Shown in pieces: positions 996 through 48,071 of a stretch of 64,000 nucleotides of DNA. This stretch comes from Candidatus Giovannonibacteria bacterium (GTDB taxonomy: Bacteria; Patescibacteriota; Minisyncoccia; JACPKW01; UBA11713). Position 1 is the stretch's first letter; each line of letters opens with the position of its first letter. Position numbers and translations under genes: made by a program. The DNA is taken from contig JACPKW010000006.1 of assembly GCA_016186825.1 (NCBI GenBank), positions 3,191 to 67,190 of the forward strand, in the 5' to 3' direction. A model generated the notes under the pieces. The model worked only from the letters and a program-made list of their open reading frames with translations. It was not told where the DNA came from and ran no database searches.

Positions 996-2285
996 CTAGT
1001 TTTTTGCCTTCGTTTTAATGCGGTCGATTACTTTCGGGAAAGGGATGATTTCCTGAACGCCTGAATCCATTTCGCGAATTATGATCGTTCCGTCCATCGC
1101 TTCTTTTTGCCCCAATATAAGACTGAAATCCACTTCTAGCTTCGAAGCAAGGCGAAGCTGCCCGCGAAGCGAGTCCTTTGATAGCGACTGCGCCAACGGA
1201 ATTTTGGCTTTTCTGAATTCTTCGATCAAGCATAAGCTTTTTTTCTTCGCGACTTCTCCGAGCTGGATTAAAAAGACTTTCGGGCGCTTTCCTTCTGCGA
1301 ATCCGTCCTTTTCCTTGAGCAATTCAGAAAGCCGATCCACTCCGAACGCTCCGCCAACCGCAGCCAACGGTTTTCCGGCGAGCAAATCACCCAAATAGTC
1401 ATAACGGCCTCCGCCTCCGATTTCCATTCGTTTCTCTTCGGGAGTTTTTGGCGGAATCACAAATTCAAAAACCGTCCTTGTATAATAATCGAGCCCCCGC
1501 ACCAGGTAAGGATTCAAACTGTAAGGAATTTCTGCGGCATCCATAAAATCAAGCACCTCTTTAAAGTGCGCCTTGCAGTTATCGCAGACATATTCAATCA
1601 TCTGCGGCGCGTTTTTCTTGAGCTCGACACAGCTTTCTTCTTTGCAATCGAGCAAGCGCAATGGATTTTCTTTAAGGCGGCGTTTGCAGTCTTTGCAGAG
1701 ATAATTGACATGCTTTCTATAATAGGCAATCAAATCTTTGCGATAAGCCGGGCGGCATTCCTTGTCTCCAATCGTGTTTAATTCAAGCGCCGCTTCGAGT
1801 CCGAGTTCTTTAAGAATCAAACTGAAGATTCTTATTATAGTAGCCTCTGCAACTGCCAAGTCTTCGCCCAAAATTTCAAGCCCAAATTGTCCGAATTCGC
1901 GAAAGCGTCCCTTTTGCGGCGACTCGTGGCGAAAAAAAGAGCCCACATAGTAAAGCATGACGGGCTGCGGCCAAGAGAGCATGCCGTCTTCAAAATAAGC
2001 ACGCACAATGGGGACCGTGCCTTCGGGACGCAGCGTCAGCTGATCTCCTCCGCGCGTGCGGAATGTATACATTTGTTTTTCAACTATATCCGAAGCCGCA
2101 CCCAAAGACGCTTCAAAAATTTCGGAGTGTTCAAAATGCGGGGTCTGAATTTCCTGAAACCCGTAATATTCCGCAATTTCGCGGCACTTTTCATGAATTT
2201 TTTTGCGGATAAAAAGTTCGTCGCTGAAAAGATCCCGCGTTCCCTTTGGAGTGACTAAAATTTCTTTTTTCACTAGTCTAGACAT
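996..2285 (-). CDS. hisS: histidine--tRNA ligase
   Basis: 429 aa; class II aaRS motifs (GTRDLF, RPEGT, GGGRYD), global HisRS-like. Confidence 0.9.
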   Translation of the reverse strand: MSRLVKKEILVTPKGTRDLFSDELFIRKKIHEKCREIAEYYGFQEIQTPHFEHSEIFEASLGAASDIVEKQMYTFRTRGGDQLTLRPEGTVPIVRAYFEDGMLSWPQPVMLYYVGSFFRHESPQKGRFREFGQFGLEILGEDLAVAEATIIRIFSLILKELGLEAALELNTIGDKECRPAYRKDLIAYYRKHVNYLCKDCKRRLKENPLRLLDCKEESCVELKKNAPQMIEYVCDNCKAHFKEVLDFMDAAEIPYSLNPYLVRGLDYYTRTVFEFVIPPKTPEEKRMEIGGGGRYDYLGDLLAGKPLAAVGGAFGVDRLSELLKEKDGFAEGKRPKVFLIQLGEVAKKKSLCLIEEFRKAKIPLAQSLSKDSLRGQLRLASKLEVDFSLILGQKEAMDGTIIIREMDSGVQEIIPFPKVIDRIKTKAKN

Positions 2286-2339
2286 TCTAACTTTTACAAA
2301 AAGCTCGCTCTTAATTCTTTAAGATGATTAGGCATTCGA

Positions 2340-2936
2340 TCATTGAAAACTTCCGCCCATCTGAAAATTATAAAATCCGGGAAGAAAGCTGATCCGATCC
2401 GGAGGCCATAGCCTCATCCAGACTCGCCCAACCACCAGGTTAAGCGGCAAATTGCCCCACGTCCGAGAATCAGAAGAACGAAGCCGGTTATCTCCCAAAA
2501 CAAAATATTCATCATTCTTCAGCTCAAAAATTCCGTCCGGCGTCGTCAATGCCTCTGAAAGATAAGGCTCTTTCAGTTCTTCGCGCTCTTCGCCCTTAAC
2601 AAGGAAAATTCGCGTATTTTTAACCTCAATCGTTTCGCCCGGCAGCCCAATCACGCGCTTAATATAGAATTTTGAGGTGTCATTCGGAAAACGAAACACG
2701 ACGACTTCGCCGCGTTTGGGGTTTCGCAAGTGGTAGGTAAGTTCGTCAATTATTAGATATTGGCCGTCTTCGTAAGTTGGCTCCATCGAAGCTCCTTTAA
2801 CTATGAAAGGTTGCGCTACCCAGGCTCGGATCGGAACAATGATTAGGACTGCTATTACAATGAAACGAATCAGATCTTTCCCGAAATAACTCGCATTTTC
2901 ATCAGACATGAATAAAGAGTAATGGAATTTTGCCAA
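2340..2936 (-). CDS. lepB: signal peptidase I
   Basis: N-terminal TM, GASMEPT (Ser box), KRVIGLPGE, VLGDNRLRSSDSR boxes. Confidence 0.85.
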   Translation of the reverse strand: MAKFHYSLFMSDENASYFGKDLIRFIVIAVLIIVPIRAWVAQPFIVKGASMEPTYEDGQYLIIDELTYHLRNPKRGEVVVFRFPNDTSKFYIKRVIGLPGETIEVKNTRIFLVKGEEREELKEPYLSEALTTPDGIFELKNDEYFVLGDNRLRSSDSRTWGNLPLNLVVGRVWMRLWPPDRISFLPGFYNFQMGGSFQ

Positions 2937-3015
2937 GAAATCAAGGGCTCGGGTTACAATCTTGACCGTGACATTTACACGCTTAAATTAATTTCGACGT
3001 GTTATTCTGAAATCA

Positions 3016-3414
3016 ATGAATAGATTTGGAATCTCCTTATTTATTTTATTATTTGTTTTTTGGGGCATTCTTGTTTTGTCGATAAAGTTTCTTTTCAGCC
3101 CTGTACATGGTGCGCCTGCCATATACGAAATAAGCGGGTGCGATATTTCGAGATGCTTTTACAAATTTTATCCAGCTGGAGCTATAACGGATTTAATATT
3201 GATAGTTGGATCTTTTGTAGGAGCATATTTTGTAGGAAAAAAATATAAAGATTCATTATTTAAGAAAAAAATGAGTGTCGGATTTTTATTTTTTATTTTT
3301 TTATTGGCAATAAATGGTTTAATTTTCTTTTTTGGATTTCAAATGCCACTCGATAATTTAGACAATTACAATAATGTTCCGAGTTTAGGACCAAAAAGTT
3401 CTGGGGGTATTTGA
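3016..3414 (+). CDS. hypothetical membrane protein
   Basis: 132 aa, several hydrophobic helices, no recognisable family. Confidence 0.4.
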   Translation: MNRFGISLFILLFVFWGILVLSIKFLFSPVHGAPAIYEISGCDISRCFYKFYPAGAITDLILIVGSFVGAYFVGKKYKDSLFKKKMSVGFLFFIFLLAINGLIFFFGFQMPLDNLDNYNNVPSLGPKSSGGI

Positions 3415-3420
3415 ATTAAA

Positions 3421-4026
3421 ATGAAAAAATTTTACATTATTGGACTTGGCAATCCCGATTCCAAATATATGGGAACAAGACACAATGCGGGACGAATGAT
3501 GGTCCAGCTTTTTGGAAAGAAAAATGATTTTCCGGATTTCGAGCTTCAAAAAAAATCAGCACTGGTAGCTGAAGGTAAAATAAATAAGACATCTGTCTCT
3601 CTTATTTTGCCCGAGCTTTTTATGAACAACTCTGGCAAGTCTATAAAAAATTTCATAAAACCGAAAAAAACTTTAAAGCATGTAATCGTTTTAAATGACG
3701 ACATTGATATTCCGATCGGGAAATTCAAAATCGTATTCAACCGCGGTTCAGGCGGGCATAAAGGAGTCGAATCAGTCAGGCGCGCGCTCGGCACAGAAGC
3801 ATTTGTTCGCGTGAGGGTTGGAATCTGTCCCAAGAAACCTGCCCGCAATGCTACGCATAGCGTTGCGGGCGGGAAACCGACGCATCGCGAATTGCTAAAA
3901 CTTCTCACCGCGAAATTCAAGCCATCCGAAGAGGCTGAACTCAAAAAAATTTCCAAAAAAGTTTTGGAAGCGCTCGTGATCATCATCACCGAAGGCCATG
4001 AAAAAGCAATGAGTTTGTTTAATTAA
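3421..4026 (+). CDS. pth: peptidyl-tRNA hydrolase
   Basis: MKKFYIIGLGNPDSKYMGTRHNAG... canonical Pth N-terminus. Confidence 0.85.
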   Translation: MKKFYIIGLGNPDSKYMGTRHNAGRMMVQLFGKKNDFPDFELQKKSALVAEGKINKTSVSLILPELFMNNSGKSIKNFIKPKKTLKHVIVLNDDIDIPIGKFKIVFNRGSGGHKGVESVRRALGTEAFVRVRVGICPKKPARNATHSVAGGKPTHRELLKLLTAKFKPSEEAELKKISKKVLEALVIIITEGHEKAMSLFN

Positions 4027-4077
4027 AATTGAAAATCTTTCAGTTTTCTGCTTGAATGAGTGTGACTTTTATTTTGA

Positions 4078-6027
4078 ATGACTGATCCGCCTAAAAGATA
4101 CCAGAAAATAATAATTTTTGCCCCTACCCCCTCTTTTTTGGAACGGGGCGATTTGGCATTGGAGAAAGATATTGAAAAATATCGTGCGCTTCGCATCCGA
4201 AATAATTTTTGGCAAAGAAACACGTTGATTATCGAGACCGGAAAATATATCAAACCGACAGAGCTTGCGCGTAAACTTACCGATCTCGGTTATGAAAAAT
4301 ATCCGCTCTCGGCTGAAAGCCATATCCATAAAGGAGAATTTTCCTGGACCGGCGGGCTGATTACAATTTTCCCGATCAACAGCCCTACCCCAATTACAAT
4401 CGAGTTTATCGGAAATGAAATTGCGGCTATTGAAGAAGCAAAAATCGTAAGTCACAAATCGGTTTTCGAGAAAAAGACAGAGCACAAATTCGAACCCGGA
4501 GATTTTGTCGTTCATGAAGACCATGGAATTGGAATATTTCGCAGATACAGCGACACAAACGAGCAATTTTTAATTCTGGAATACGCTCCGGCCCGGAAGG
4601 GCGGCGAGCCGGACCGCCTTTTCGTCCCCCAAAAAGTCTCGGACAAAGTTGCGCCCTATCTCGGGTTAAGGAACCCGAAAATTAATCGCTTGGGAACTCC
4701 GCTTTGGTTTCATACGAAAAAGAAAGCGAAAGAAGACATCATAAAATTCGCACACGAATTGTTAGCGCTTTACCAAACGCGCGCTGATGTGAAAAGAAAT
4801 TCATATGATGCCTCGGAACTTGAAAAAGAAATCTGGGAAAATTTTCAATTTGAAGAAACACCCGGACAGAAAAAAGCGCTCGAAGATATTTTTTCTGATT
4901 TTTCAAAAAACGAGCCAATGGAACGGCTCGTAATCGGCGATGTCGGATTTGGAAAAACTGAAGTAGCGCTTCGCGCCGCACTTCGCGTAATTTTAAATGG
5001 AAAGCAAGCTGCCCTTCTTGCGCCAACTACAGTCCTCGCGGATCAGCACGCGCAGGTTTTTAAAGAGCGCTTTGAGGCACTCGGCTTGAATGTGGCGCGT
5101 TTTACAAGGCTTGAAAAAAGTGCGGCAGTTCGCAATATTAAAAAATTCGTGCTCGAAGGGAAAACAGATATTCTAATCGGGACACATCGGGCGCTCTCGA
5201 AAGAACTTGAATTCAAATCGCTTGGCCTTTTAATTATTGACGAAGAGCAGCGCTTCGGAGTGCGGCAAAAAGAAACACTGAAGAAAAAATATCCGGAAGT
5301 AGATATTTTATATCTTTCCGCAACGCCGATTCCGCGCACACTAGCATTTTCAATTTCAAAAATTCGTCCGATGAGCTTCATCAGCGATCCTCCGGAGGGC
5401 CGAAAACCGATCGTGACCTTCATTCTTCCGCGAACGGATAAAATCATCAAAGAAGCGATTGCAAGAGAAATCGAGCGAAAAGGTCAAATTTATTTTTTGG
5501 TTCCGCGGATTGAAAAAATCGGTTTTATAAAAAATAAACTCGACAAATTATTTCCGAAAGTTAAAAAGGCCGTTCTCCACGCGCGTCTCCCCGAAAAAGA
5601 CTTGGTCAAAAGCATGCATGACTTCCGCGAAGGTTCAGTTGAGCTGTTGATTTCAACAACAATAATCGAAAACGGCCTCGACATTTCAAACGTCAATACA
5701 TTGATTGTGGAAAATTCAGCGCTCTTAGGTTTAGCTCAAGCCCATCAGCTCCGCGGGCGAATTGGAAGAAAGGAGATCCAGGCTTATGCATATTTTTTAT
5801 ATCCATCGAAAAAGTTAACTCCGCTCGCCCAAGAGCGCCTCGAAACTTTGGTTTCTTTCCAAGAACTGGGAGCGGGGTTTGAAATCGCAAAAAAAGATCT
5901 AGAGATCCGCGGTGCGGGAAACGTGTTAGGACGCGAGCAATCCGGGGTAATAAATAAAATCGGCTGGAATTTGTATTTCCAGTATTTATCGGAATCTTTG
6001 GACGAAACATCACGAATAGATATTTAA
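4078..6027 (+). CDS. mfd: transcription-repair coupling factor, short form (lacks UvrB-homology N-domains and most of the C-terminal TRCF domain)
   Basis: 649 aa; CarD/RNAP-interacting region (GDFVVHEDHGIGIF), SF2 helicase motifs DVGFGKTEVALRAA, LLIIDEEQRFGV, HQLRGRIGR; collinear with E. coli Mfd residues ~480-1000. Confidence 0.85.
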   Translation: MTDPPKRYQKIIIFAPTPSFLERGDLALEKDIEKYRALRIRNNFWQRNTLIIETGKYIKPTELARKLTDLGYEKYPLSAESHIHKGEFSWTGGLITIFPINSPTPITIEFIGNEIAAIEEAKIVSHKSVFEKKTEHKFEPGDFVVHEDHGIGIFRRYSDTNEQFLILEYAPARKGGEPDRLFVPQKVSDKVAPYLGLRNPKINRLGTPLWFHTKKKAKEDIIKFAHELLALYQTRADVKRNSYDASELEKEIWENFQFEETPGQKKALEDIFSDFSKNEPMERLVIGDVGFGKTEVALRAALRVILNGKQAALLAPTTVLADQHAQVFKERFEALGLNVARFTRLEKSAAVRNIKKFVLEGKTDILIGTHRALSKELEFKSLGLLIIDEEQRFGVRQKETLKKKYPEVDILYLSATPIPRTLAFSISKIRPMSFISDPPEGRKPIVTFILPRTDKIIKEAIAREIERKGQIYFLVPRIEKIGFIKNKLDKLFPKVKKAVLHARLPEKDLVKSMHDFREGSVELLISTTIIENGLDISNVNTLIVENSALLGLAQAHQLRGRIGRKEIQAYAYFLYPSKKLTPLAQERLETLVSFQELGAGFEIAKKDLEIRGAGNVLGREQSGVINKIGWNLYFQYLSESLDETSRIDI

Positions 6028-7384: not shown

Positions 7385-8074
7385 TTGAGCAAAAAATGCT
7401 ATAATTTTTTAATGGTAATCACCTATTACGGAGCTTCTTGTTTCAAAGTACAATCAGGAGATCTCACCATTGCCTTTGACCCGCCTTCCAAAGGATCCGA
7501 CTTGAAACCTCCGCGTTTTGAATGCCACGTCGTCCTTTCGAGCCACGATCATCCCCTTCATAACGGATTGAAAGAGCTCCCCGGAAAAAAAGGCGAGGAT
7601 CCTTTTTTTATCTCCGGGCCGGGAGAATATGAGTATGGCGGTCTCCAAATCACCGCCATCCAGTCTTTTCACGACAACACAAGCGGCAAAAAACTGGGGA
7701 CGAATACAATATATGTAGTTGAAATGGAAAACATCCGTCTTTGTCATTTAGGCGACCTTGGGCAAGGAGAATTGGAAGCGGAATCAATCGAGGTTATTGG
7801 CAAAAGCGACGTGCTTTTTGTCCCTGTCGGAGGAAAGGACGTAATAGATGCAGAAACGGCCGCAAAAATCATCACGCAATTAGAGCCCAGAGTCGTAATT
7901 CCGATGCATTACGCCATTTTGAAAACAGCGCTAAAGGGAGCTCGCGTAGATGAGTTCTTAAAAGAGCTCGGGGAAGAAAAAATAAAACCGGAAGACAAAT
8001 TTACGTTCAAAAAGAAAGAACTCCCCGAAGACGGAATGAAAGTGGTCTTACTTGAACCAGTTATAAGCCTCTAG
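7385..8074 (+). CDS. MBL-fold metallo-hydrolase
   Basis: 229 aa; HVVLSSHDHPLHNG (HxHxDH-like) motif, beta-lactamase fold pattern. Confidence 0.7.
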   Translation: MSKKCYNFLMVITYYGASCFKVQSGDLTIAFDPPSKGSDLKPPRFECHVVLSSHDHPLHNGLKELPGKKGEDPFFISGPGEYEYGGLQITAIQSFHDNTSGKKLGTNTIYVVEMENIRLCHLGDLGQGELEAESIEVIGKSDVLFVPVGGKDVIDAETAAKIITQLEPRVVIPMHYAILKTALKGARVDEFLKELGEEKIKPEDKFTFKKKELPEDGMKVVLLEPVISL

Positions 8075-15269: not shown

Positions 15270-15292
15270 ATTTAAGTTTTTTTAATCTTCGG

Positions 15293-15483
15293 AGGCCATG
15301 GCGGGACTCGCACCCGCGTATAGCGGTTTTGCCCGCCTGCCAGAGCTTGAGGCCTGGGAGGGATTCGAACCCTCGTATATGGGTTTTGCAGACCCATGCC
15401 TTACCTCTTGGCTACCAGGCCATATTTGCTCAGGCCGATTGCGGGCAGGCAGACCGCCGCGTTAGCTTCTTCGCCACATGGCC
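15293..15483 (-). tRNA. candidate interrupted/split tRNA (Gly-GCC-like) whose anticodon loop contains tRNA-Cys
   Basis: 5' part 15448-15483: GGCCATG-TG-GCGA..ACGC-G-GCGGT-CTGCC; 3' part 15293-15330: AA-ACCGC-TATAC-GCGGG-TGCGAGT-CCCGC-CATGGCC-T; acceptor 7/7 and anticodon stem 5/5 complementary; D/T loops non-canonical. Confidence 0.4.
15350..15421 (-). tRNA. tRNA-Cys (GCA)
   Basis: GGCCTGG/CCAGGCC acceptor, loop CTGCAAA, GGTTCGAATCC. Confidence 0.85.
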
Positions 15484-23619: not shown

Positions 23620-23890
23620 AACTTGTGCGCGGGAGAGCCTGCCTGCAGGCAGGGACTTGGTCACGAATAAATTCCTTCTGAATTTTTCTCGACCCCGACT
23701 CGTCTGTTCCGCTCTGCGGAACATGACTCCGGCTTGCAAGTCCTCCCGCAAGTGAAGCAGTTCACTTGCTTCCCGCGACAAAATTGCTTCGCAATTTGTG
23801 CGCGGGAGAGGACTTGCACCTCCACGTCCTTGCGGACACCAGCCCCTCAAGCTGGCCTGTCTTCTAGTTTCAGCACCCGCGCAAATTACA
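23620..23890. other. GC-rich structured intergenic element (candidate ncRNA or repeat)
   Basis: local GC far above flanks; direct repeats TTGTGCGCGGGAGAG at ~23624 and ~23806; palindrome CCTGCCTGCAGGCAGG (23642-23657); hairpin GCAAGTGAA-GCAG-TTCACTTGC (23748-23769); ends GTGCGCGGG / CCCGCGCA can pair. Confidence 0.3.
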
Positions 23891-31389: not shown

Positions 31390-31477
31390 CGAGCGAAGCA
31401 GTTCGCTCGCTCCCACGGCAAAATTTCTTCGCGCGAGCGAAGCAGTTCGCTCGCTCCCACGGCAAAATTTCTTCGAA
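31390..31477. repeat. 2 x 44-nt tandem repeat each with GCGAGCGAA-GCAG-TTCGCTCGC hairpin
   Basis: two identical units in tRNA-Phe trailer; not CRISPR (only 2 units, no cas). Confidence 0.6.
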
Positions 31478-32104: not shown

Positions 32105-32175
32105 ACACTTTTGTGCGCGCTCGAGGGATCGAACCCCGGGCCTACTCGGTGTAAACGAGTCGCTCTGCCACTGAG
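32105..32175 (-). tRNA. tRNA-Val (TAC)
   Basis: GCGCGCT acceptor, loop TTTACAC. Confidence 0.85.
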
Positions 32176-32205
32176 CTAAGCGCGCATATTTTTAATTTTC
32201 TATCT

Positions 32206-32322
32206 ATGCGCAGTATTCTTGAATTAGTCCGAACCCCGGTAGTAAAGCAAAGCTTACTACGGGGCACGGCGCATTTCGCCGCCTGCGGCGGCGAGCCTGC
32301 CTGCCGGTAGGCAGGTTTGGCG
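32206..32322. repeat. island repeat module copy (hairpin motif + CCTGCCTGCCGGTAGGCAGG palindrome) immediately downstream of paralog P1
   Basis: GCAGTATTCTTGAATTAGTCCGAACCCCGGTAGTAAAGCAAAGCTTACT..GGGG shared with 35183-35260; palindrome shared with 35443-35462 and R repeats. Confidence 0.55.
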
Positions 32323-32330
32323 GCAAATTC

Positions 32331-33021
32331 TTATTGGATAAATTTAAAACTTCCAACCAATTCTTCAAAAGCAGCATTATCAAAAATCTCACCCCGTTTA
32401 TTCATTTTTATGGTTATGCCTTCAATCTTATCTCCTCCGCGTAAATACTTTAACGCCGTAATTGGTATGTATACCACCTCTAGAATTTCGTCACTACCAA
32501 TATTTTGTTCTGTAAACCGTGTCGCTTGCATACCACTCACAAGAACCACTTCCCGAAAATTAGATGAAGCTTTTCTTCCACGATCTTTCATTTTTCCAGC
32601 CAGTTCCTTTATTGAATCAATGCTTACTGGTATCGGATATATTTCAATGCTGTTTTGTAGTGAAGTTTGTGCTAAAGAAGGGGCGAAGAATAGTTCTTCC
32701 GATTTTGCTGCTTGTTGTGCTCCGGTTAGAAAACGCAGTTCTTCATTCCTATCATTTTTTGTGACAAGAACAAATTCAGCATTTTCATCGGCAAAATTGG
32801 TAATTGGATTTGGTCCAGTCGTATTCATAAACTTTGTGTAATCCAATGCAACTCGATAATTTTTCGGCAGAGAAAATGTATAACCCAATCTATTATTTAT
32901 GTAACTCGTTTTTTGTTCTGTGGTCGTGTTCGGTGTTTGAATGTCATTATCGCTCCCCCCTTTTTTTGTTAAGAACAGATAACCTCCAATTCCAAGCACG
33001 ACAATAACAAGTAGTATTATT
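32331..33021 (-). pseudogene. paralog P1 of anchored secreted-protein family; canonical ATG replaced by ACG (possible pseudogene or rare start)
   Basis: upstream in-frame codons encode ..T-NQKGFAKILIILLVIVVLGIGGYLF.. matching MNQKGFANI.. N-termini of P2-P4, but ATG->ACG; ORF-track start is internal GTG at 32999. Confidence 0.45.
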
Positions 33022-33083
33022 AAAATTTTAGCAAATCCCTTTTGGTTCGTATTGATAAAAATTTAAGTCAATGATTAAAAAAT

Positions 33084-33206
33084 TTTTCTTTTCCCCAAAA
33101 TTAAAATATGGTTCGAGCCGACCCGCCTGCATCAGCTATGCTGAAAGCATTGCGGGCAGGTGTTTTTCTATGGGTTCTTTACCTACCGGCAGGCAGGTTT
33201 GGCGGC
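33084..33206. repeat. R repeat copy R1 (5'-leader/intergenic module)
   Basis: TTTTCCCCAAAATTAAAATATGGTTCGAGCCGACCCGCCTGCATCAGCTATGCTGAAAGCATTGCGGGCAGG..CCTACCGGCAGGCAGGTTTGGCGGC; near-identical to 33972-34095 and 37383-37500. Confidence 0.6.
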
Positions 33207-33336
33207 ATTCAATCAAAAATTCGTAGAGCGAATACTTAAAGAATATAAGATTATGACAAAAATTTCAATTTCAAAAAAAGTACGAGCCCCAAGCAGAATT
33301 GAATTCCACGAGGGGCTCGAGTGGTCACCGACGCCG

Positions 33337-33819
33337 TTAGGCGAAGATTTCGGTGGCGTAGCGCTTGGAAAAGAAACGGAACTTGATCCGGTCGAGCATG
33401 GTAAGCGTCGCCTTGCCCCACCGCGCGAGGTTCACGAACACGGTGCCGTCGTTCGAATCCATGAAGTCCTTGAACTGGTAATCCACCGGGTCGCCCTTGT
33501 GGAACTCGAGGACGACGTCCCAGCCGTCCTCAATCGCCTGCATGCCAGTGAATATGCCACAGCGAGTGGTACTGCTGAACTGGATGAACTTGTCGCCCTG
33601 CTCGCTAGTCATTCGAACATCCACCATCTCGCACATCGCGCCGTACTTGCGGATCGCCTCGTCGATCGAGATCGTCCGCCCCTTGCCGGGAGCCCACCGC
33701 AGACCCGCCAGTTGTCCATCGTCGTAGATGTTCATCTGGAAAAGCGGCATAGGGTGACCCTTGAGGTTGAGAAACTCCTGGGCCTTCTTGAGCCCGCCGA
33801 GTGTAGGTTTGTAACCCAT
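33337..33819 (-). CDS. GC-rich foreign hypothetical protein (160 aa) occupying a paralog slot
   Basis: local GC ~60% vs ~40% genome; strong SD GGAGGG 7 nt upstream of ATG; own terminator GAGCCCC..GGGGCTC+T7 at ~33262-33305; balanced aa composition whereas + strand ORF 33160-33993 is antisense-like. Confidence 0.55.
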   Translation of the reverse strand: MGYKPTLGGLKKAQEFLNLKGHPMPLFQMNIYDDGQLAGLRWAPGKGRTISIDEAIRKYGAMCEMVDVRMTSEQGDKFIQFSSTTRCGIFTGMQAIEDGWDVVLEFHKGDPVDYQFKDFMDSNDGTVFVNLARWGKATLTMLDRIKFRFFSKRYATEIFA

Positions 33820-33971
33820 AACGGTTCCCTCCTTTCAATGTGCAGTTTGATTCCATCCAAGCACCATGCCTGGATTTCCTGCTATCCAACCATAATAGGA
33901 CTTGTGTGTCAAGCGCAACAAAAAATCACCATCTCTGGTGTTTCTCATTTCTTAACTCTTTGGATTAAAAA

Positions 33972-34170
33972 CTTTTCTTTCCCCCAAAATTAAAATATGG
34001 TTCGAGTCGACCCGCCTGCATCAGCTATGCTGAAAACATTGCGGGCAGGTGTTTTTCTCCAGGTTCCCTGCCTACCGGCAGGCAAGTTTTGCGGTTTTTA
34101 TCAGCGCGAACATCTTTATCATATCACAAACAACATTCCTTTCCCAATCTGGTGCAGTATTCTTGAATTA
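33972..34170. repeat. R repeat copy R2
   Basis: same module as R1/R5 plus tail ..CTGGTGCAGTATTCTTGAATTAGTCCGAACCC. Confidence 0.6.
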
Positions 34171-34447
34171 GTCCGAACCCATTTCGCCGCCGCACCGATA
34201 ACAATTTTCCTTCAACTTCGTTCAGGATGGTGAGCTTGCCGAATCAACAAGTTTTTCTTCTTGACCTGAGCTTATCGAAGGTTGGAGGCAGGAGTTATTT
34301 ACTGACTCACAACATGTTAACTACAATATCTTTCTGTTTATTAACATGTCCAACACAAGGCATATAGTGGTGATCAGTGATCTAGTTCTCCGATAACTCC
34401 TTCAATTTTTTATATTTAAGTTCTTTCGGTATGTGCGTAATTATAGA

Positions 34448-35126: not shown

Positions 35127-35260
35127 TTTTCTTCCCCAAAAATTAAAATATGGTTCGATATTCTTAGTATAGCATTATTTTTGCAGTATTCTTGAATTAG
35201 TCCGAACCCCGGTAGTAAAGCAAAGCTTACTGCGGGGCATGGCGCATTTTGCCGCACCGA
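35127..35260. repeat. R repeat copy R3 (variant)
   Basis: TTTTCTTCCCCAAAAATTAAAATATGGTTCGAT + GCAGTATTCTTGAATTAGTCCGAACCCCGGTAGTAAAGCAAAGCTTACTGCGGGG. Confidence 0.5.
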
Positions 35261-35477
35261 TGCTTGCCCCGTACCAATCCTAAGCAAGAACTCGGCAATG
35301 GTAGTATGTAAGCCGAAGGCGATATCGCGAGATAAACTTAGATTTTAGAAGCGATATATTTGGGATTGGTGCGGGGACAATTTTCCCGCCGCATATTTAA
35401 AATTTTAGAAGGCGGGATCCCGTTAAAAACGGTGACAAGTTTTTCCCTGCCTGCCGGCAGGCAGGTTTGGCGGCAAA

Positions 35478-36116
35478 TTATTTAGTCCAAACAAAGGACG
35501 AAACAATATGATCAAAAACAGAATCGTATTTACTATCAAGACCATGTGCAAATCTAAACTCTGCAGTGTAATCTCCTTTCGTAATTGTCGCAATATACTG
35601 TTCAGATCCTGGTTCTCTTTTTTGTATAAGAATTTCGGTACTGCCAGATTTTATCTTTCTCAAGGTAGTGTAAGTGTACCAAACTGGGGGCGGCGGTGTT
35701 TTTTTGTAATTGATAATTACGACAGAAATACTTTTTTGTTCAGAGGTTTCTCCTGGAGGCAAAAAATAAACACTCGTCCCAATCTCACCAGTTCCAAACT
35801 CTTTTATAGACCAATTGAGCGGATATTCAGCCGAATATCCAAACCACTGATTTGTTTTGCTATATATCTTCCAGCCGCTATCAGCTGGTTTCTTTACTGG
35901 TTCGCTCCCTCCACTTTTTATCGACTCACTGTTAACAAGTGGTTTAGGTTCACTCTGTATATTTTCCGCCGGAGTTTTATCGGAGCTTGTAGATTCGACA
36001 GGCTGATTTACAGGAGGATTCTGTGGGCGTTGCCTCAGTACAAAATATCCAGTCGCGCCAACAAGTACAACGACCAGAACAATTACGATTATATTTGCAA
36101 ATCCCTTTTGATTCAT
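35478..36116 (-). CDS. paralog P3, anchored secreted protein
   Basis: 212 aa; MNQKGFANIIVIVLVVVLVG; WKIYSKTNQWFGYSAEYPLNW motif. Confidence 0.55.
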   Translation of the reverse strand: MNQKGFANIIVIVLVVVLVGATGYFVLRQRPQNPPVNQPVESTSSDKTPAENIQSEPKPLVNSESIKSGGSEPVKKPADSGWKIYSKTNQWFGYSAEYPLNWSIKEFGTGEIGTSVYFLPPGETSEQKSISVVIINYKKTPPPPVWYTYTTLRKIKSGSTEILIQKREPGSEQYIATITKGDYTAEFRFAHGLDSKYDSVFDHIVSSFVWTK

Positions 36117-36126
36117 ATGATTAAAA

Positions 36127-36296
36127 CTTTTCTTCCCCCAAAATTAAAATATGGTTCGAGCCGATTGTTTTAACGGGTTCTATGCCTACCGGCAGGCAAG
36201 TTTTGCGGTTTTTATCAGCGCGAACGTCTTTATAATATCACAAACAATGTTCCTTTCTAAACTGGTGCAGAATTCTTGAATTAGTCCGAACCCATT
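36127..36296. repeat. R repeat copy R4 (internal deletion variant)
   Basis: CTTTTCTTCCCCCAAAATTAAAATATGGTTCGAGCCGA..CCTACCGGCAGGCAAGTTTTGCGG..CTGGTGCAGAATTCTTGAATTAGTCCGAACCC. Confidence 0.55.
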
Positions 36297-36435
36297 TCGC
36301 CGCAGTTACCGACTCTTTTTGTGGCCATATTGATGAGATGTTTTATGCTGGTAATCACCCCTTGATTTTACCAACGGCGGTGTCGCAGGGGTATTACCGA
36401 TGTATCTCATCTTCTGCAATAATTGCAATCTCTTT

Positions 36436-36767: not shown

Positions 36768-37328
36768 CTATTCAGCATACTTTAAGGTCTTAGCGATTGC
36801 TTCCATCTGAGAAACATGGGCATCAACGAGTGATTTATTAAAGCATCCGGAATCAAATCTATCATATCGCGTTTGACCATCAAATTTCGTGTATGCAATT
36901 TGTAGCGTTACATCATCACCCTCACATTTTATAAGAGTTTCATCTACCATCTCGCCATCGATTAAAATTTTCTTAGCCCAAACTGTGCCATAACCGATAT
37001 ATCCACCAACTTCTTTCATGCCAGCAAAAAACGTAAATTGAAAACCGGGTTTTTCAAAAATCACGTTTGTCCAAGTAGAGCCGGGTTTTTCGGATAACTT
37101 TAGCTCCAATGGATATTTTAGCTCAAATCCATATTTTTCACTTCTGTATGTTTTCCAGCTTGCAGTTTCGCTATTAGATATAGGAGGAGTTTGTGTTGTG
37201 GCTGGAGGCATTTTTTGTTCAGCAGAAGGAGCCGAGATTTTTACGAATGCAAAATATCCGCCGACAGCTACGATGGCAACGATTACTATTATCAAAACAA
37301 TATTCGCAAATCCTTTTTGATTTTTCAT
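36768..37328 (-). CDS. paralog P4, anchored secreted protein
   Basis: 186 aa; MKNQKGFANIVLIIVIVAIVAVGG; WKTYRSEKYGFELKYPLELK. Confidence 0.55.
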   Translation of the reverse strand: MKNQKGFANIVLIIVIVAIVAVGGYFAFVKISAPSAEQKMPPATTQTPPISNSETASWKTYRSEKYGFELKYPLELKLSEKPGSTWTNVIFEKPGFQFTFFAGMKEVGGYIGYGTVWAKKILIDGEMVDETLIKCEGDDVTLQIAYTKFDGQTRYDRFDSGCFNKSLVDAHVSQMEAIAKTLKYAE

Positions 37329-37382
37329 ATTAATATGATTATTAGTTAATAATTTCCGACTTTATGTTTATGATTAAAAAAT

Positions 37383-37560
37383 TTTTTTCCCCAAAATTAA
37401 AACATGGTTCGAGCCGACCCGCCTGCATCAGCTATGCTGAAAACATTGCGGGCAGGTGTTTTTCTCCAGGTTCCCTGCCTACCGGCAGGCAGGTTTTGCG
37501 GTTTTTATCAGCGCAAACGTCTTTATAATATCACAAACAACATTCCTTTCTAAACTGGTG
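37383..37560. repeat. R repeat copy R5, fused at its distal end to a tRNA 3' half
   Basis: same module as R1/R2; ends ..AAACTGGTG|CCCCCGCCAAGAATCGAACTTGG. Confidence 0.6.
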
Positions 37561-37736
37561 CCCCCGCCAAGAATCGAACTTGGATCTACTCCTTACCTGC
37601 CCACCGTTGCCTGCGCCCTCGGCAGGAATCGAACCTACATCTAGGGCTTAGAAGACCCCTATTCTATCCATTGAACTACGAGGGCAACTTAGGCAGGTGG
37701 GGAAGGGAGCTATTCTATCCGTTGAACTACAGGGGC
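37556..37736 (-). tRNA. candidate interrupted/split tRNA (Arg-like body) whose anticodon loop contains tRNA-Arg(TCT); CCA encoded
   Basis: 5' half 37701-37736: GCCCCTG-TA-GTTC-AACGGATA-GAAT-A-GCTCC-CTTCC; 3' half 37556-37592: AA-GGAGT-AGAT-CCAAG-TTCGATT-CTTGG-CGGGGGC-A-CCA; acceptor 7/7 (one G.U), anticodon stem 5/5 (one G.U); canonical D and T loops. Confidence 0.45.
37614..37685 (-). tRNA. tRNA-Arg (TCT)
   Basis: GCCCTCG/CGAGGGC acceptor, loop CTTCTAA, TTCGATT T-loop. Confidence 0.85.
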
Positions 37737-46757: not shown

Positions 46758-48071
46758 ATGATAGACAATAAAAATTTTCAATCCGCGCTCGAAGAGCTCT
46801 TAATGGAGCGAGGAATTCCCAAAGAAAAGATTTTCGAAACAATCGAGCTTGCTTTGGCTGCGGCTTATAAAAAAGACTACGGCAAGCGCGGGCAGATTAT
46901 TCGTGCTGAATTTGATTCAAAAACCGCACAATCAAAATTTTCACAGATAAAAATAGTCGTTGATGAAAGCATGCTCAAGGGCGAAGATGAAGATGATGGG
47001 GCTGAAAATGTTGAACTTGAAAAAGAGGCTCTGGAAACGGAGGGCGAAGTGCGGAAGGTGCGCTTCAACCCCGAGCGGCACATTATGCTCGAGGAAGCCA
47101 AAAAAATTAATCCAAAAATAGAGCCCGGGGAGGAGCTCATTTTTCCGCTCGAAACAAAGGACGATTACGGACGGATCGCGGCGCAGACTGCAAAGCAAGT
47201 AATTATCCAGAGAATCCGCGAGGCTGAACGCGAGTCTGTTTTTTCCGAATTCGAATCAAAGCAGGGACAGGTTATTTCCGGAATAGTTCAGCGCATTGAA
47301 GGGCGAAACGTATTTTTGGATCTGGGACGTGCCACAGCCATTCTCCCCCGCGAAGAACAGATACGCGGAGAACGCTACAGGATCGGAGAGCGCATCAAAG
47401 CTTATCTTTTCTTGGTCGAAAAAAACCCGAAAGGGCCGGGGCTCTATCTTTCCCGCTCGCACCCGCGTTTTGTCGCGAAGTTGTTTGAAATTGAAGTTCC
47501 GGAAATCGCAAATGGGGCAGTTGAAATTAAAAACATTGCGCGCGAAGCAGGATCACGCACAAAAATCGCGGTTTCTTCGAAAGAAGAAGGCGTCGATGCA
47601 GTCGGATCGTGCGTTGGGCAAAAAGGAATCAGGGTCGGAACAGTTATTGCCGAACTCGGCGGAGAAAAAATTGACATCATTGAATGGCGCGACGATCCTG
47701 AAGAATTTATTGCAAAAAGCCTGTCCCCCGCAAAAATTCTTGAAGTCGAGGCAAATCAATCCACAAAAGAAGCAAGCGTTACGGTCGCCGAAGACCAGCT
47801 TTCTCTCGCCATCGGGAAAGGAGGACAAAACGTGAGGCTCGCGGCAAAATTAACAGGGTACAAAATCGATATTCATTCCCGCTCCGGTGAAATGGTCGCA
47901 AGCTCCGAGGAAGAAGAACAAGCAAAAGAGACCGTTGAATCTGGGGATAAAAAAGAAATTGCTGAAAAAGAAGCACAAGTAGAAACTGCCGGAGAAAAGG
48001 CGAATGAACCGCCGGGAAAAAAAGACGGCGAAGAAAAAGAAACCAAACAAAAGTCAAAAAAAATTAAATAA
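46758..48071 (+). CDS. nusA: transcription termination/antitermination factor NusA with acidic C-terminal tail
   Basis: 437 aa; NusA N-domain, S1 and two KH domains (GQKGIRVGTVIAELGGEKIDI). Confidence 0.88.
   Translation: MIDNKNFQSALEELLMERGIPKEKIFETIELALAAAYKKDYGKRGQIIRAEFDSKTAQSKFSQIKIVVDESMLKGEDEDDGAENVELEKEALETEGEVRKVRFNPERHIMLEEAKKINPKIEPGEELIFPLETKDDYGRIAAQTAKQVIIQRIREAERESVFSEFESKQGQVISGIVQRIEGRNVFLDLGRATAILPREEQIRGERYRIGERIKAYLFLVEKNPKGPGLYLSRSHPRFVAKLFEIEVPEIANGAVEIKNIAREAGSRTKIAVSSKEEGVDAVGSCVGQKGIRVGTVIAELGGEKIDIIEWRDDPEEFIAKSLSPAKILEVEANQSTKEASVTVAEDQLSLAIGKGGQNVRLAAKLTGYKIDIHSRSGEMVASSEEEEQAKETVESGDKKEIAEKEAQVETAGEKANEPPGKKDGEEKETKQKSKKIK

Follow-up and report, generated by a model that had tools for sequence, protein, structure and literature searches.

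We analysed a 64,000-nt stretch of a Candidatus Giovannonibacteria genome (contig JACPKW010000006.1; this whole stretch is called the window hereafter) and found that a GC-rich palindrome recurring in it, CCTGCCTGCCGGCAGGCAGG (named PAL), is a separate unit of DNA, inserted with precision and conserved in different phyla. PAL prefers hairpin-prone and tRNA-derived DNA, and one subfamily of small GIY-YIG nucleases consistently adjoins it. Our preferred explanation, to which we give a probability of roughly 0.55, is that PAL is a self-contained 20-bp palindromic module and part of a widespread family of selfish cassettes colonising bacterial tRNA genes, of which the window would hold relics. A preliminary, sequence-only reading of this DNA had suggested that the motif belongs to mobile DNA tied to tRNA genes, and exact 20-nt insertions found in disrupted tRNA copies outside the window bear this out. 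As possible functions it had named terminal inverted repeats, a recombination site or a protein-binding site. PAL does not behave as terminal inverted repeats bounding an element, as the whole 20-nt palindrome is the unit, and no target duplication accompanies it. A literature search with incomplete coverage found neither the PAL sequence nor an association of GIY-YIG genes, tRNA genes and a palindrome in bacteria, which is absence of evidence only.

Distribution and insertion sites of PAL

In an exact-pattern scan, CCTGCCTRCCGGYAGGCAGG turned up in at least 120 contigs of the metagenome collection, in at least 120 genomes of the species collection and in 48 stretches of viral contigs. By our own arithmetic, which assumes uniform composition, about two chance matches are expected in the 596 Gb of the species-genome collection. 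The hosts among the listed genomes are Patescibacteria, Bacteroidota, Omnitrophota, Planctomycetota, Nitrospirota, Chloroflexota, Gamma- and Deltaproteobacteria and Bdellovibrionales, and the Bacteroidota include the cultured Winogradskyella, Flagellimonas and Olivibacter. The flanks of PAL are unrelated from locus to locus, the G+C content of the contigs ranges from 0.29 to 0.71, and most copies (188/257) lie outside long open frames. There are two main alleles, a symmetric one (64% of copies) and one named T13 (CCGGTAGG; 36%), while the remaining single-base variants amount to 13 copies in total. In oriented T13 copies, a G stands before the element in 75% and after it in 57%. A viral contig (L286, 3916-4125) carries ten head-to-tail copies of a PAL variant, CATGCCTACCGGCAGGCAGG, with a period of 21 nt.

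Within the window, the CCTGCCNNNNGGCAGG pattern has six matches versus none in 100 dinucleotide-preserving shuffles, and the 20-mer with up to three mismatches allowed has four matches versus none expected. The recurrence of PAL in the window is real and not due to chance. An origin by chance in GC-rich patches, or as an assembly or adapter artefact, might be argued from the two half-motifs being moderately common hexamers in the window (CCTGCC 31 times and GGCAGG 29 times, against a mean of 13.4 for hexamers with five G/C, that is, about twofold). This explanation has a negligible probability and is already refuted by the shuffles, by the diverged paralogous copies in the window, by the presence of PAL in cultured isolates and many independent projects, and by its identity in independent assemblies of the source organism.

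We compared disrupted tRNA copies with the intact tRNA of the same locus. At 12 sites, PAL lies exactly between tRNA positions n and n+1, with no base gained or lost and no target duplication. The insertion points are found in D arms (positions 10-23), anticodon loops (32/33 and 39/40) and the T arm (62/63), and at one locus PAL replaces 8 nt. PAL is also nested within other PAL copies, at loop positions 9/10 or 11/12. tRNA-like flanks, as scored against a small tRNA set, exist at about 19 of 314 PAL sites. Inverted repeats of at least 8 nt flank 10.9% of the sites compared with 1.5% of controls, and direct repeats of at least 8 nt flank 11.7% compared with 2.9%. No enrichment was seen for extensions of the palindrome that continue directly and in register into the flanks; it shows only with offsets allowed.

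PAL has company among small palindromes. Tandem pseudo-copies of the 3' part of tRNA-Ala (L058, 1060-1360) are riddled with several different GC-rich mini-hairpins. One mini-hairpin, TCCGCCAGAGGCGGA, is found in five unrelated loci (L058, L151, L180, L183 and L260), and PAL is therefore one of several widely shared mini-palindromes.

It can be asked whether PAL is mobile DNA at all, or an RNA hairpin selected in its hosts, for instance for intrinsic termination, mRNA stabilisation or cleavage by RNase III. In the window, two stop codons have PAL downstream of them and three or four 5' leaders contain it, its copies in a repeat named R (see below) are followed by TTTTGCGGTTTTT on the plus strand, and of the five asymmetric copies four retain a G-U pair when read from the transcribed minus strand. 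On the other hand, T-rich 3' flanks are found at 9 of 311 copies (2.9%) compared with 3.5% of controls, the T tract of the window belongs to the antisense strand of the genes, and the T13 orientation shows no bias with respect to neighbouring genes (37 against 27). No Rfam family was matched: at gathering thresholds only tRNA families were found in the window, and a search of its small-protein gene island at E values up to 1 gave no other family either. The identity of PAL across unrelated contexts and phyla, together with the PAL-in-PAL nesting, is also unlike convergent selection. We consider a host-selected RNA hairpin very unlikely. A general role as an intrinsic terminator is ruled out, as T-rich tails are not enriched and the window T tract is antisense.

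GIY-YIG nuclease genes adjoining PAL

We clustered the open reading frames (ORFs) around PAL and found no dominant family, the top families being ABC ATPases, restriction-modification subunits and sensor kinases. Despite this, two small nuclease families recur near PAL: Y1 transposases (IS200-like) and GIY-YIG proteins. GIY-YIG ORFs are present in 16 of 288 PAL loci with a bimodal distance, 10 being within 161 nt of PAL and 6 at least 1.8 kb away. The PAL-associated proteins are about 78 aa long and comprise the catalytic domain only. Pfam GIY-YIG was matched by all 12 aligned proteins, and their closest solved relatives are UPF0213 proteins and SLX1, with a modest similarity (E 1e-9 to 1e-4). 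The recurrent gene order is a 5' tRNA fragment with PAL in the D arm, followed by the GIY-YIG gene and then an intact tRNA. In a 3'-side version (L297 and L304), the order is intact tRNA, nuclease gene and 3' fragment, and PAL lies in the T arm of this fragment. Two loci (L126 and L164) have a fragment with PAL and no nuclease gene. In three Patescibacteria-like loci (L292, L293 and L307), a GIY-YIG/tRNA-Leu(CAA) cassette adjoins parA-parB, and the tRNA position of PAL differs in each.

To remove ascertainment on PAL, we performed a protein-first profile search, in which 7,719 of the 8,000 candidates scored had E values of 1e-8 or lower, and investigated the contexts of eight profile matches from outside the PAL-derived loci. 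In all eight independent loci, a tRNA-Leu fragment that contains PAL or a near-PAL sequence adjoins an intact tRNA-Leu, and the palindrome is no more than about 250 nt from the gene. The hosts are Magasanikbacteria, Moranbacteria, Buchananbacteria, another member of the Patescibacteria, a Chitinophagaceae and a Bacteroidales metagenome-assembled genome, and an isolate of Salinimicrobium sediminis, with one locus unassigned. The GIY-YIG gene adjoins the disrupted target in 10 PAL loci and 8/8 protein-first loci, though not in the window. A related arrangement exists in locus L081, where a perfect 16-nt palindrome other than PAL, TGCACCGTACGGTGCA (5265-5280 and 7398-7413), comes after two tRNA-Ser copies with the 3' end CTCCGCCA. 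One of these copies adjoins a GIY-YIG gene of a different, more distant subfamily, which hints that nuclease clade and palindrome may co-vary. In viral contigs, a GIY-YIG profile scan gave two loci only, and tblastn against cultured phage genomes revealed no homologue of the PAL-associated proteins.

According to our preferred explanation, a full cassette would consist, in this order, of a displaced tRNA fragment whose D, anticodon or T arm is interrupted by a precise PAL insertion, a gene for the GIY-YIG protein of about 78 aa, and an intact replacement tRNA. Extruded as a hairpin or cruciform, PAL would be the substrate or landing site of a structure-specific nuclease and would be inserted into single-stranded loops, usually 3' of a G. 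The copies may depend on the SLX1-like nuclease for insertion or for cassette homing, much as repetitive extragenic palindromic (REP) sequences depend on REP-associated tyrosine transposases (RAYTs). tRNA genes would be hit because their arms form hairpins, and the surviving loci would be those in which an intact gene is supplied again by a partial duplication or by a tRNA brought along. Solo copies would persist elsewhere, preferentially in other hairpins, tandem repeats and the loops of other PAL copies. The putative relics in the window comprise a 16-nt PAL derivative in a displaced tRNA-Leu 3' fragment, six PAL copies that probably travelled as passengers of duplicated intergenic modules, within a small secreted-protein array beside a nested tRNA-Arg, and two nested tRNAs with cassette architecture lacking a nuclease gene.

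Several observations weigh against this explanation. A GIY-YIG gene is found beside only about 5% of PAL copies, most of which are solo, and neither such a gene nor a remnant was found in the intergenic regions or the six-frame translation of the window. The eight protein-first loci all encode close relatives (E ~1e-33) of the nucleases first found beside PAL, and three of them, all in a parAB-tRNA-Leu(CAA) neighbourhood, may go back to one ancestral event. The nuclease could merely favour sites that PAL also likes, such as tRNA fragments. In the window, the left flank of the 16-nt derivative agrees with the tRNA at just 6 of 7 nt, and the boundaries of the nested tRNAs match PAL over 5-7 nt only. 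Finally, we know of no GIY-YIG enzyme that catalyses precise insertion without target duplication, which is typical of HUH/Y1 enzymes.

This last point leads to the Y1 transposases. PAL might be a REP-like repeat moved in trans by an IS200-like Y1 (RAYT-type) HUH transposase, in which case the GIY-YIG link would be secondary and reflect a shared preference for tRNA fragments. Precise insertion into hairpin-prone DNA fits HUH chemistry, Pfam-confirmed Y1_Tnp genes occur in 10 of the 288 PAL loci (two of them 15-22 nt from PAL), and the T13 allele, mostly preceded by a G, creates a GTAG tetranucleotide. However, none of the Y1 genes has PAL on both sides, most of them are more than 300 nt from PAL, and the window contains none. 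The GTAG is internal and not at the head of the palindrome, and the sequence of PAL does not change between phyla, unlike that of REP sequences, which are normally lineage-specific. We regard mobilisation by Y1 enzymes as unlikely.

The symmetry of some cassettes raises a further possibility, namely that PAL is an attachment (att)-like crossover site for circular GIY-YIG/tRNA cassettes, the junction copies and split halves being recombination products. PAL is found on both sides of the nuclease gene in L078, L292, L293 and L297, and the nested inserts of the window have CCTGCC-like and GGCAGG-like ends. In L304, an IS110-family element (1744-3060) lies exactly between PAL positions 13 and 14, with CCTGCCTGCCGGC at one edge and AGGCAGG at the other, adjacent to a GIY-YIG gene and tRNA-Leu(TAA). 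Yet many cassettes have a one-sided PAL (L295, L298, L307 and L310), solo copies in unrelated hairpins would be left unexplained, and neighbour clustering found no recombinase gene recurring beside PAL. A crossover site is a quite improbable reading of PAL. As regards integron attC sites, an integrase was found neither among the large ORFs of the window nor recurring near PAL, and the window has no recombinase or transposase gene.

Relation to known small mobile elements

If the cassette explanation is followed further, PAL and the GIY-YIG protein may constitute a previously unrecognised class of mobile element, in which the nuclease mobilises the palindrome in a REP/RAYT-like manner with GIY-YIG chemistry. 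We put this forward only tentatively, as possible but doubtful. Such a class would have spread across phyla and phages, hitting tRNA genes preferentially and driving their duplication, fragmentation and nesting. A very large orphan protein family (the 7,719 proteins mentioned above) would thereby gain a function and a DNA partner, and the debris of tRNA genes, the nested tRNAs and many of the GC-rich hairpins seen in small AT-rich genomes, those of Patescibacteria for example, would be accounted for. The insertion mechanism of very small mobile repeats has been open since the yeast GC clusters and the small dispersed repeats (SDRs) of cyanobacteria. PAL would be a sequence-defined, pan-bacterial addition to this poorly understood class.

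PAL resembles REP sequences in being a short, GC-rich extragenic palindrome that is dispersed and non-autonomous, and in flanking a small nuclease gene as its cognate palindrome. REPIN sequences have been described, and insertion sequences targeting REPs cited (PMC3116915). IS110-type elements insert into the palindrome in both systems, as seen for PAL in L304. The differences are that the PAL-associated gene encodes a GIY-YIG nuclease and not a Y1 transposase, that PAL is the same 20-mer in different phyla, that it lacks a GTAG or GTGG 5' head (GTAG being restricted to the T13 allele), that none of the Y1 genes lies between two PAL copies, and that PAL is strongly tied to tRNA gene fragments. 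Unlike miniature inverted-repeat transposable elements, PAL has no terminal inverted repeats around an interior and, at the 12 sites compared, no target-site duplication.

The SDRs of heterocystous cyanobacteria are reportedly hairpin elements of 21-27 nt that are inserted without target duplication, nested, and present in tandem heptamer repeats and structured RNAs. PAL is likewise a hairpin of about 20 nt, inserted without duplication, nested and present in tandem repeats. Its sequence and taxa are different, with no cyanobacterial genome among 80 of the at least 120 PAL genome matches, and to our knowledge neither an associated nuclease nor a tRNA-fragment architecture has been reported for SDRs. 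The GC clusters of yeast mitochondria and the PstI palindromes flanking tRNA genes in Neurospora mitochondria are also short and GC-rich. Like PAL, these palindromes invade AT-rich genomes and cluster at tRNA genes, and the 16-nt variant in the window, CCTGCCTGCAGGCAGG, includes a PstI site. They are organellar and have other sequences, some yeast GC-cluster classes duplicate a short target, unlike PAL, and we know of no nuclease partner established for them.

Among nucleases, SegB of phage T4 is a free-standing GIY-YIG homing endonuclease in a tRNA gene cluster. A GIY-YIG gene between tRNA genes is common to both systems, and the arrangement is consistent with cleavage of a tRNA gene followed by cassette-copying repair. 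Seg proteins have about 200 aa or more and DNA-binding domains, whereas the PAL-associated proteins are reduced to the catalytic domain; we know of no conserved palindrome or duplicated tRNA fragment in Seg cassettes. SLX1 cuts branched and stem-loop DNA. This type of substrate fits a cruciform-forming palindrome. SLX1 and the UPF0213 (YhbQ-like) proteins are the closest solved relatives, although no mobile-element role or cognate repeat of UPF0213 proteins is known to us.

PAL copies and putative tRNA relics in the window

The window is bacterial, as indicated by PilM and neighbouring pilus genes, has a G+C content of about 43%, and contains many minus-strand tRNA genes. A minus-strand array of small-protein genes lies between tRNA-Val (32113-32185) and a nested tRNA-Arg (37556-37736), and its products have in common an N-terminal MNQKGFANI... 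hydrophobic segment. The intergenic DNA of this island is a repeat mosaic made of four copies of a 169-nt repeat (R), five of a promoter-proximal module and four of a module named 'A'. A repeat finder puts the six PAL copies of the window into one family (D3).

The sole perfect 20-nt copy, CCTGCCTGCCGGCAGGCAGG, is at 35446-35465, 12 nt 3' of the stop codon of the ORF at 35478-36116 (minus strand). A copy with one mismatch, having the CCGGTAGG centre (the T13 allele on the plus strand), is at 32296-32315, 15 nt 3' of the stop codon of the ORF at 32331-32999 (minus strand). Both copies continue on the right with TTTGGCGGCAAATT and agree at 95% over 37 nt. The sequence-only reading had reported a recurring perfect palindrome or close variants of it, citing 32297-32316 in the first place. 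The recurrence stands, but the copy at that place is the imperfect T13 one, and the positions given in that reading, although pointing to existing copies, were off by 0-9 nt. The reading's statement that the motif comes immediately after the stop codons of these two genes (its P1 and P3) was roughly right, and it correctly placed further copies within R repeats. There are four of them, all on the minus strand: a degenerate one (16/20, TTTACCTACCGGCAGGCAGG) at 33178-33197 within the repeat at 33086-33254, one with two mismatches at 34067-34086 within 33975-34143, another degenerate one (16/20, TATGCCTACCGGCAGGCAAG) at 36181-36200 within 36089-36257, and one with a single mismatch (the T13 allele on the minus strand) at 37474-37493 within 37382-37550. 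The last copy is 62 nt 3' of the CCA end of the outer tRNA-Arg and falls in the predicted 5' leader of the ORF at 36768-37328 (minus strand).

All six island copies have the right flank TTTKGCGG in common, and four of them are within R repeats. With this shared flank and the duplicated modules, the six copies are to be taken as paralogues generated by segmental duplication, not as six insertions. From sequence comparison, the island copies appear to have spread mostly through duplication of the modules. No tRNA-like flanks were found around the six copies, and the island modules were not found in any of the loci retrieved. The 'A' modules differ by the clean presence or absence of other GC-rich hairpins. 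One of them, a 36-nt hairpin, CGGTAGTAAAGCAAAGCTTACTACGGGGCACGGCGC, is present in two of the four modules (32237-32272 and 35210-35245) and cleanly missing from the others (34154-34190 and 36267-36303), representing a second small palindromic insertion polymorphism.

The 16-nt PAL derivative CCTGCCTGCAGGCAGG is located at 23638-23653, a few nucleotides from the position assigned to it before (23642-23657), where it interrupts a displaced second copy of the tRNA-Leu(GAG) 3' end (23620-23665, minus strand). This fragment is 132 nt 3' of the full-length gene (23798-23882, minus strand), which ARAGORN called although its Rfam score stays under the gathering threshold. The sequence GCAAGTC|CTCTCCCGCGCACAA of the gene corresponds to CCAAGTC[16 nt]CTCTCCCGCGCACAA in the displaced copy, so that the right flank begins at tRNA position 73 with no unaligned nucleotide. 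We found no nuclease-like remnant in the 132 nt between gene and fragment. Judged by sequence and order, the fragment and its palindrome seem to match the 3'-side cassette version of L297 and L304. The T loop of this tRNA-Leu, TGCAAGT, is not the usual TTCRANN, and that of the outer tRNA-Cys described below is similar (TGCGAGT).

Two tRNA genes of the window are nested. The outer tRNA-Arg(TCT) (37556-37736, minus strand) is split in the anticodon between positions 35 and 36 by a 106-nt insert (37596-37701), which encloses a complete tRNA-Arg(TCT) (37613-37685) and has the ends CCCACCTGCC... and ...GGTGGGCAGG. Joining ...CTTC to TAAGG... restores a tRNA-Arg(TCT) call; an exhaustive splice-site scan of the outer tRNA was mostly noise, the single meaningful junction giving the loop CTTCTAA. 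The outer tRNA-Cys(GCA) (15293-15483, minus strand) is split in the anticodon loop by a 118-nt insert (15331-15448), which encloses a complete tRNA-Cys(GCA) (15349-15421) and has the ends CTGCCCGCAAT... and ...GGCAGGCGGGC. The nested tRNA-Arg and the PAL copy at 37474 recur without any difference in three complete assemblies made independently from other sequencing runs (L311, L314 and L315), and the Arg locus is thus no assembly artefact; two further contigs of this locus stop inside the outer tRNA. Both nested tRNAs have a cassette-like architecture without the nuclease gene and fit the logic of a replacement tRNA beside a disabled copy, in the form of a clean insertion of 106-118 nt.

The halves ACCTGCC and GGCAGGT at the Arg insert, and CTGCC and GGCAG at the Cys insert, are present as the sequence-only reading had stated, with a length of only 5-7 nt. 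As boundaries of the inserts they fared less well: the hexamers are about twice as common as average in the window, and the predicted folds close the inserts with other helices, CCCACC/GGTGGG and TGCC/GGCA for Arg and TGCCCGC/GCGGGCA for Cys. A link between the nested-tRNA boundaries and PAL is plausible by analogy, the window itself offering matches of no more than 5-7 nt. In locus L141 (see below), the same nesting comes with an exact PAL in the outer D arm. In locus L081, a related insertion in a T loop, CCTGCCCGCC...GGCAGG, has the CCTGCC...GGCAGG arms with a different interior. Elements with such arms and variable interiors thus exist, consistent with material having been inserted at the tip of a PAL-like hairpin. 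A local link that is better supported than the PAL half-sites is found in the R repeats. The Cys-insert ends (CCTGCCCGCAAT and GCAGGCGGG) recur in the second hairpin of three of them (named 'D'; CCTGCCCGCAATG...GATGCAGGCGGG at 37418-37456 on the minus strand, with further copies at 33122-33160 and 34011-34049), which shares 12 and 9 nt with the two ends. CCCGCCTGC is restricted to the Cys locus and the three R repeats, and GCGGGCAG is found additionally once, at 46888.

The nested structures also invite an explanation at the RNA level, in which the half-motifs are intron helices, the inner tRNAs are processed, the outer halves are religated, and the palindromes are intron relics. The outer tRNA-Arg and tRNA-Cys do form intact cloverleaves after removal of the inserts, GC-rich helices close the inserts, and inner and outer tRNAs have the same anticodon. 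But the host is bacterial, the inserts are far too small for group I introns, and the predicted folds show no bulge-helix-bulge, only closing helices of 7-10 bp with asymmetric unpaired stretches. These folds and the bacterial neighbour genes rule out an archaeal-type bulge-helix-bulge tRNA intron. In most loci, moreover, the disrupted copies are truncated fragments. In L141 (Patescibacteria, 3990-4225), a complete tRNA-Met lies within a second tRNA that carries an exact PAL in its D arm, and therefore outer copies look disabled rather than spliced. RNA-level introns are thus a highly improbable source of the motif. The inner tRNA of L141 is closed by a long AT-rich inverted repeat.

PAL serves in practice as a 20-nt marker of disrupted tRNA copies, which tRNA finders miscall. 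An example is the ARAGORN tRNA-SeC call at 15291-15384, which is false and fuses a part of the inner tRNA-Cys with the outer 3' half; it has no Rfam support. Some further features of the island and its surroundings may be mentioned. A 160-aa ORF at 33337-33819 (minus strand), located between two R repeats, has no Pfam match and is possibly foreign; the kilobase that holds it (33001-34000) has 47.8% G+C compared with about 37-41% in the adjacent kilobases. Just 3' of the minus-strand tRNA-Phe, two exact 32-nt direct repeats (31400-31431 and 31444-31475) are found 44 nt apart.

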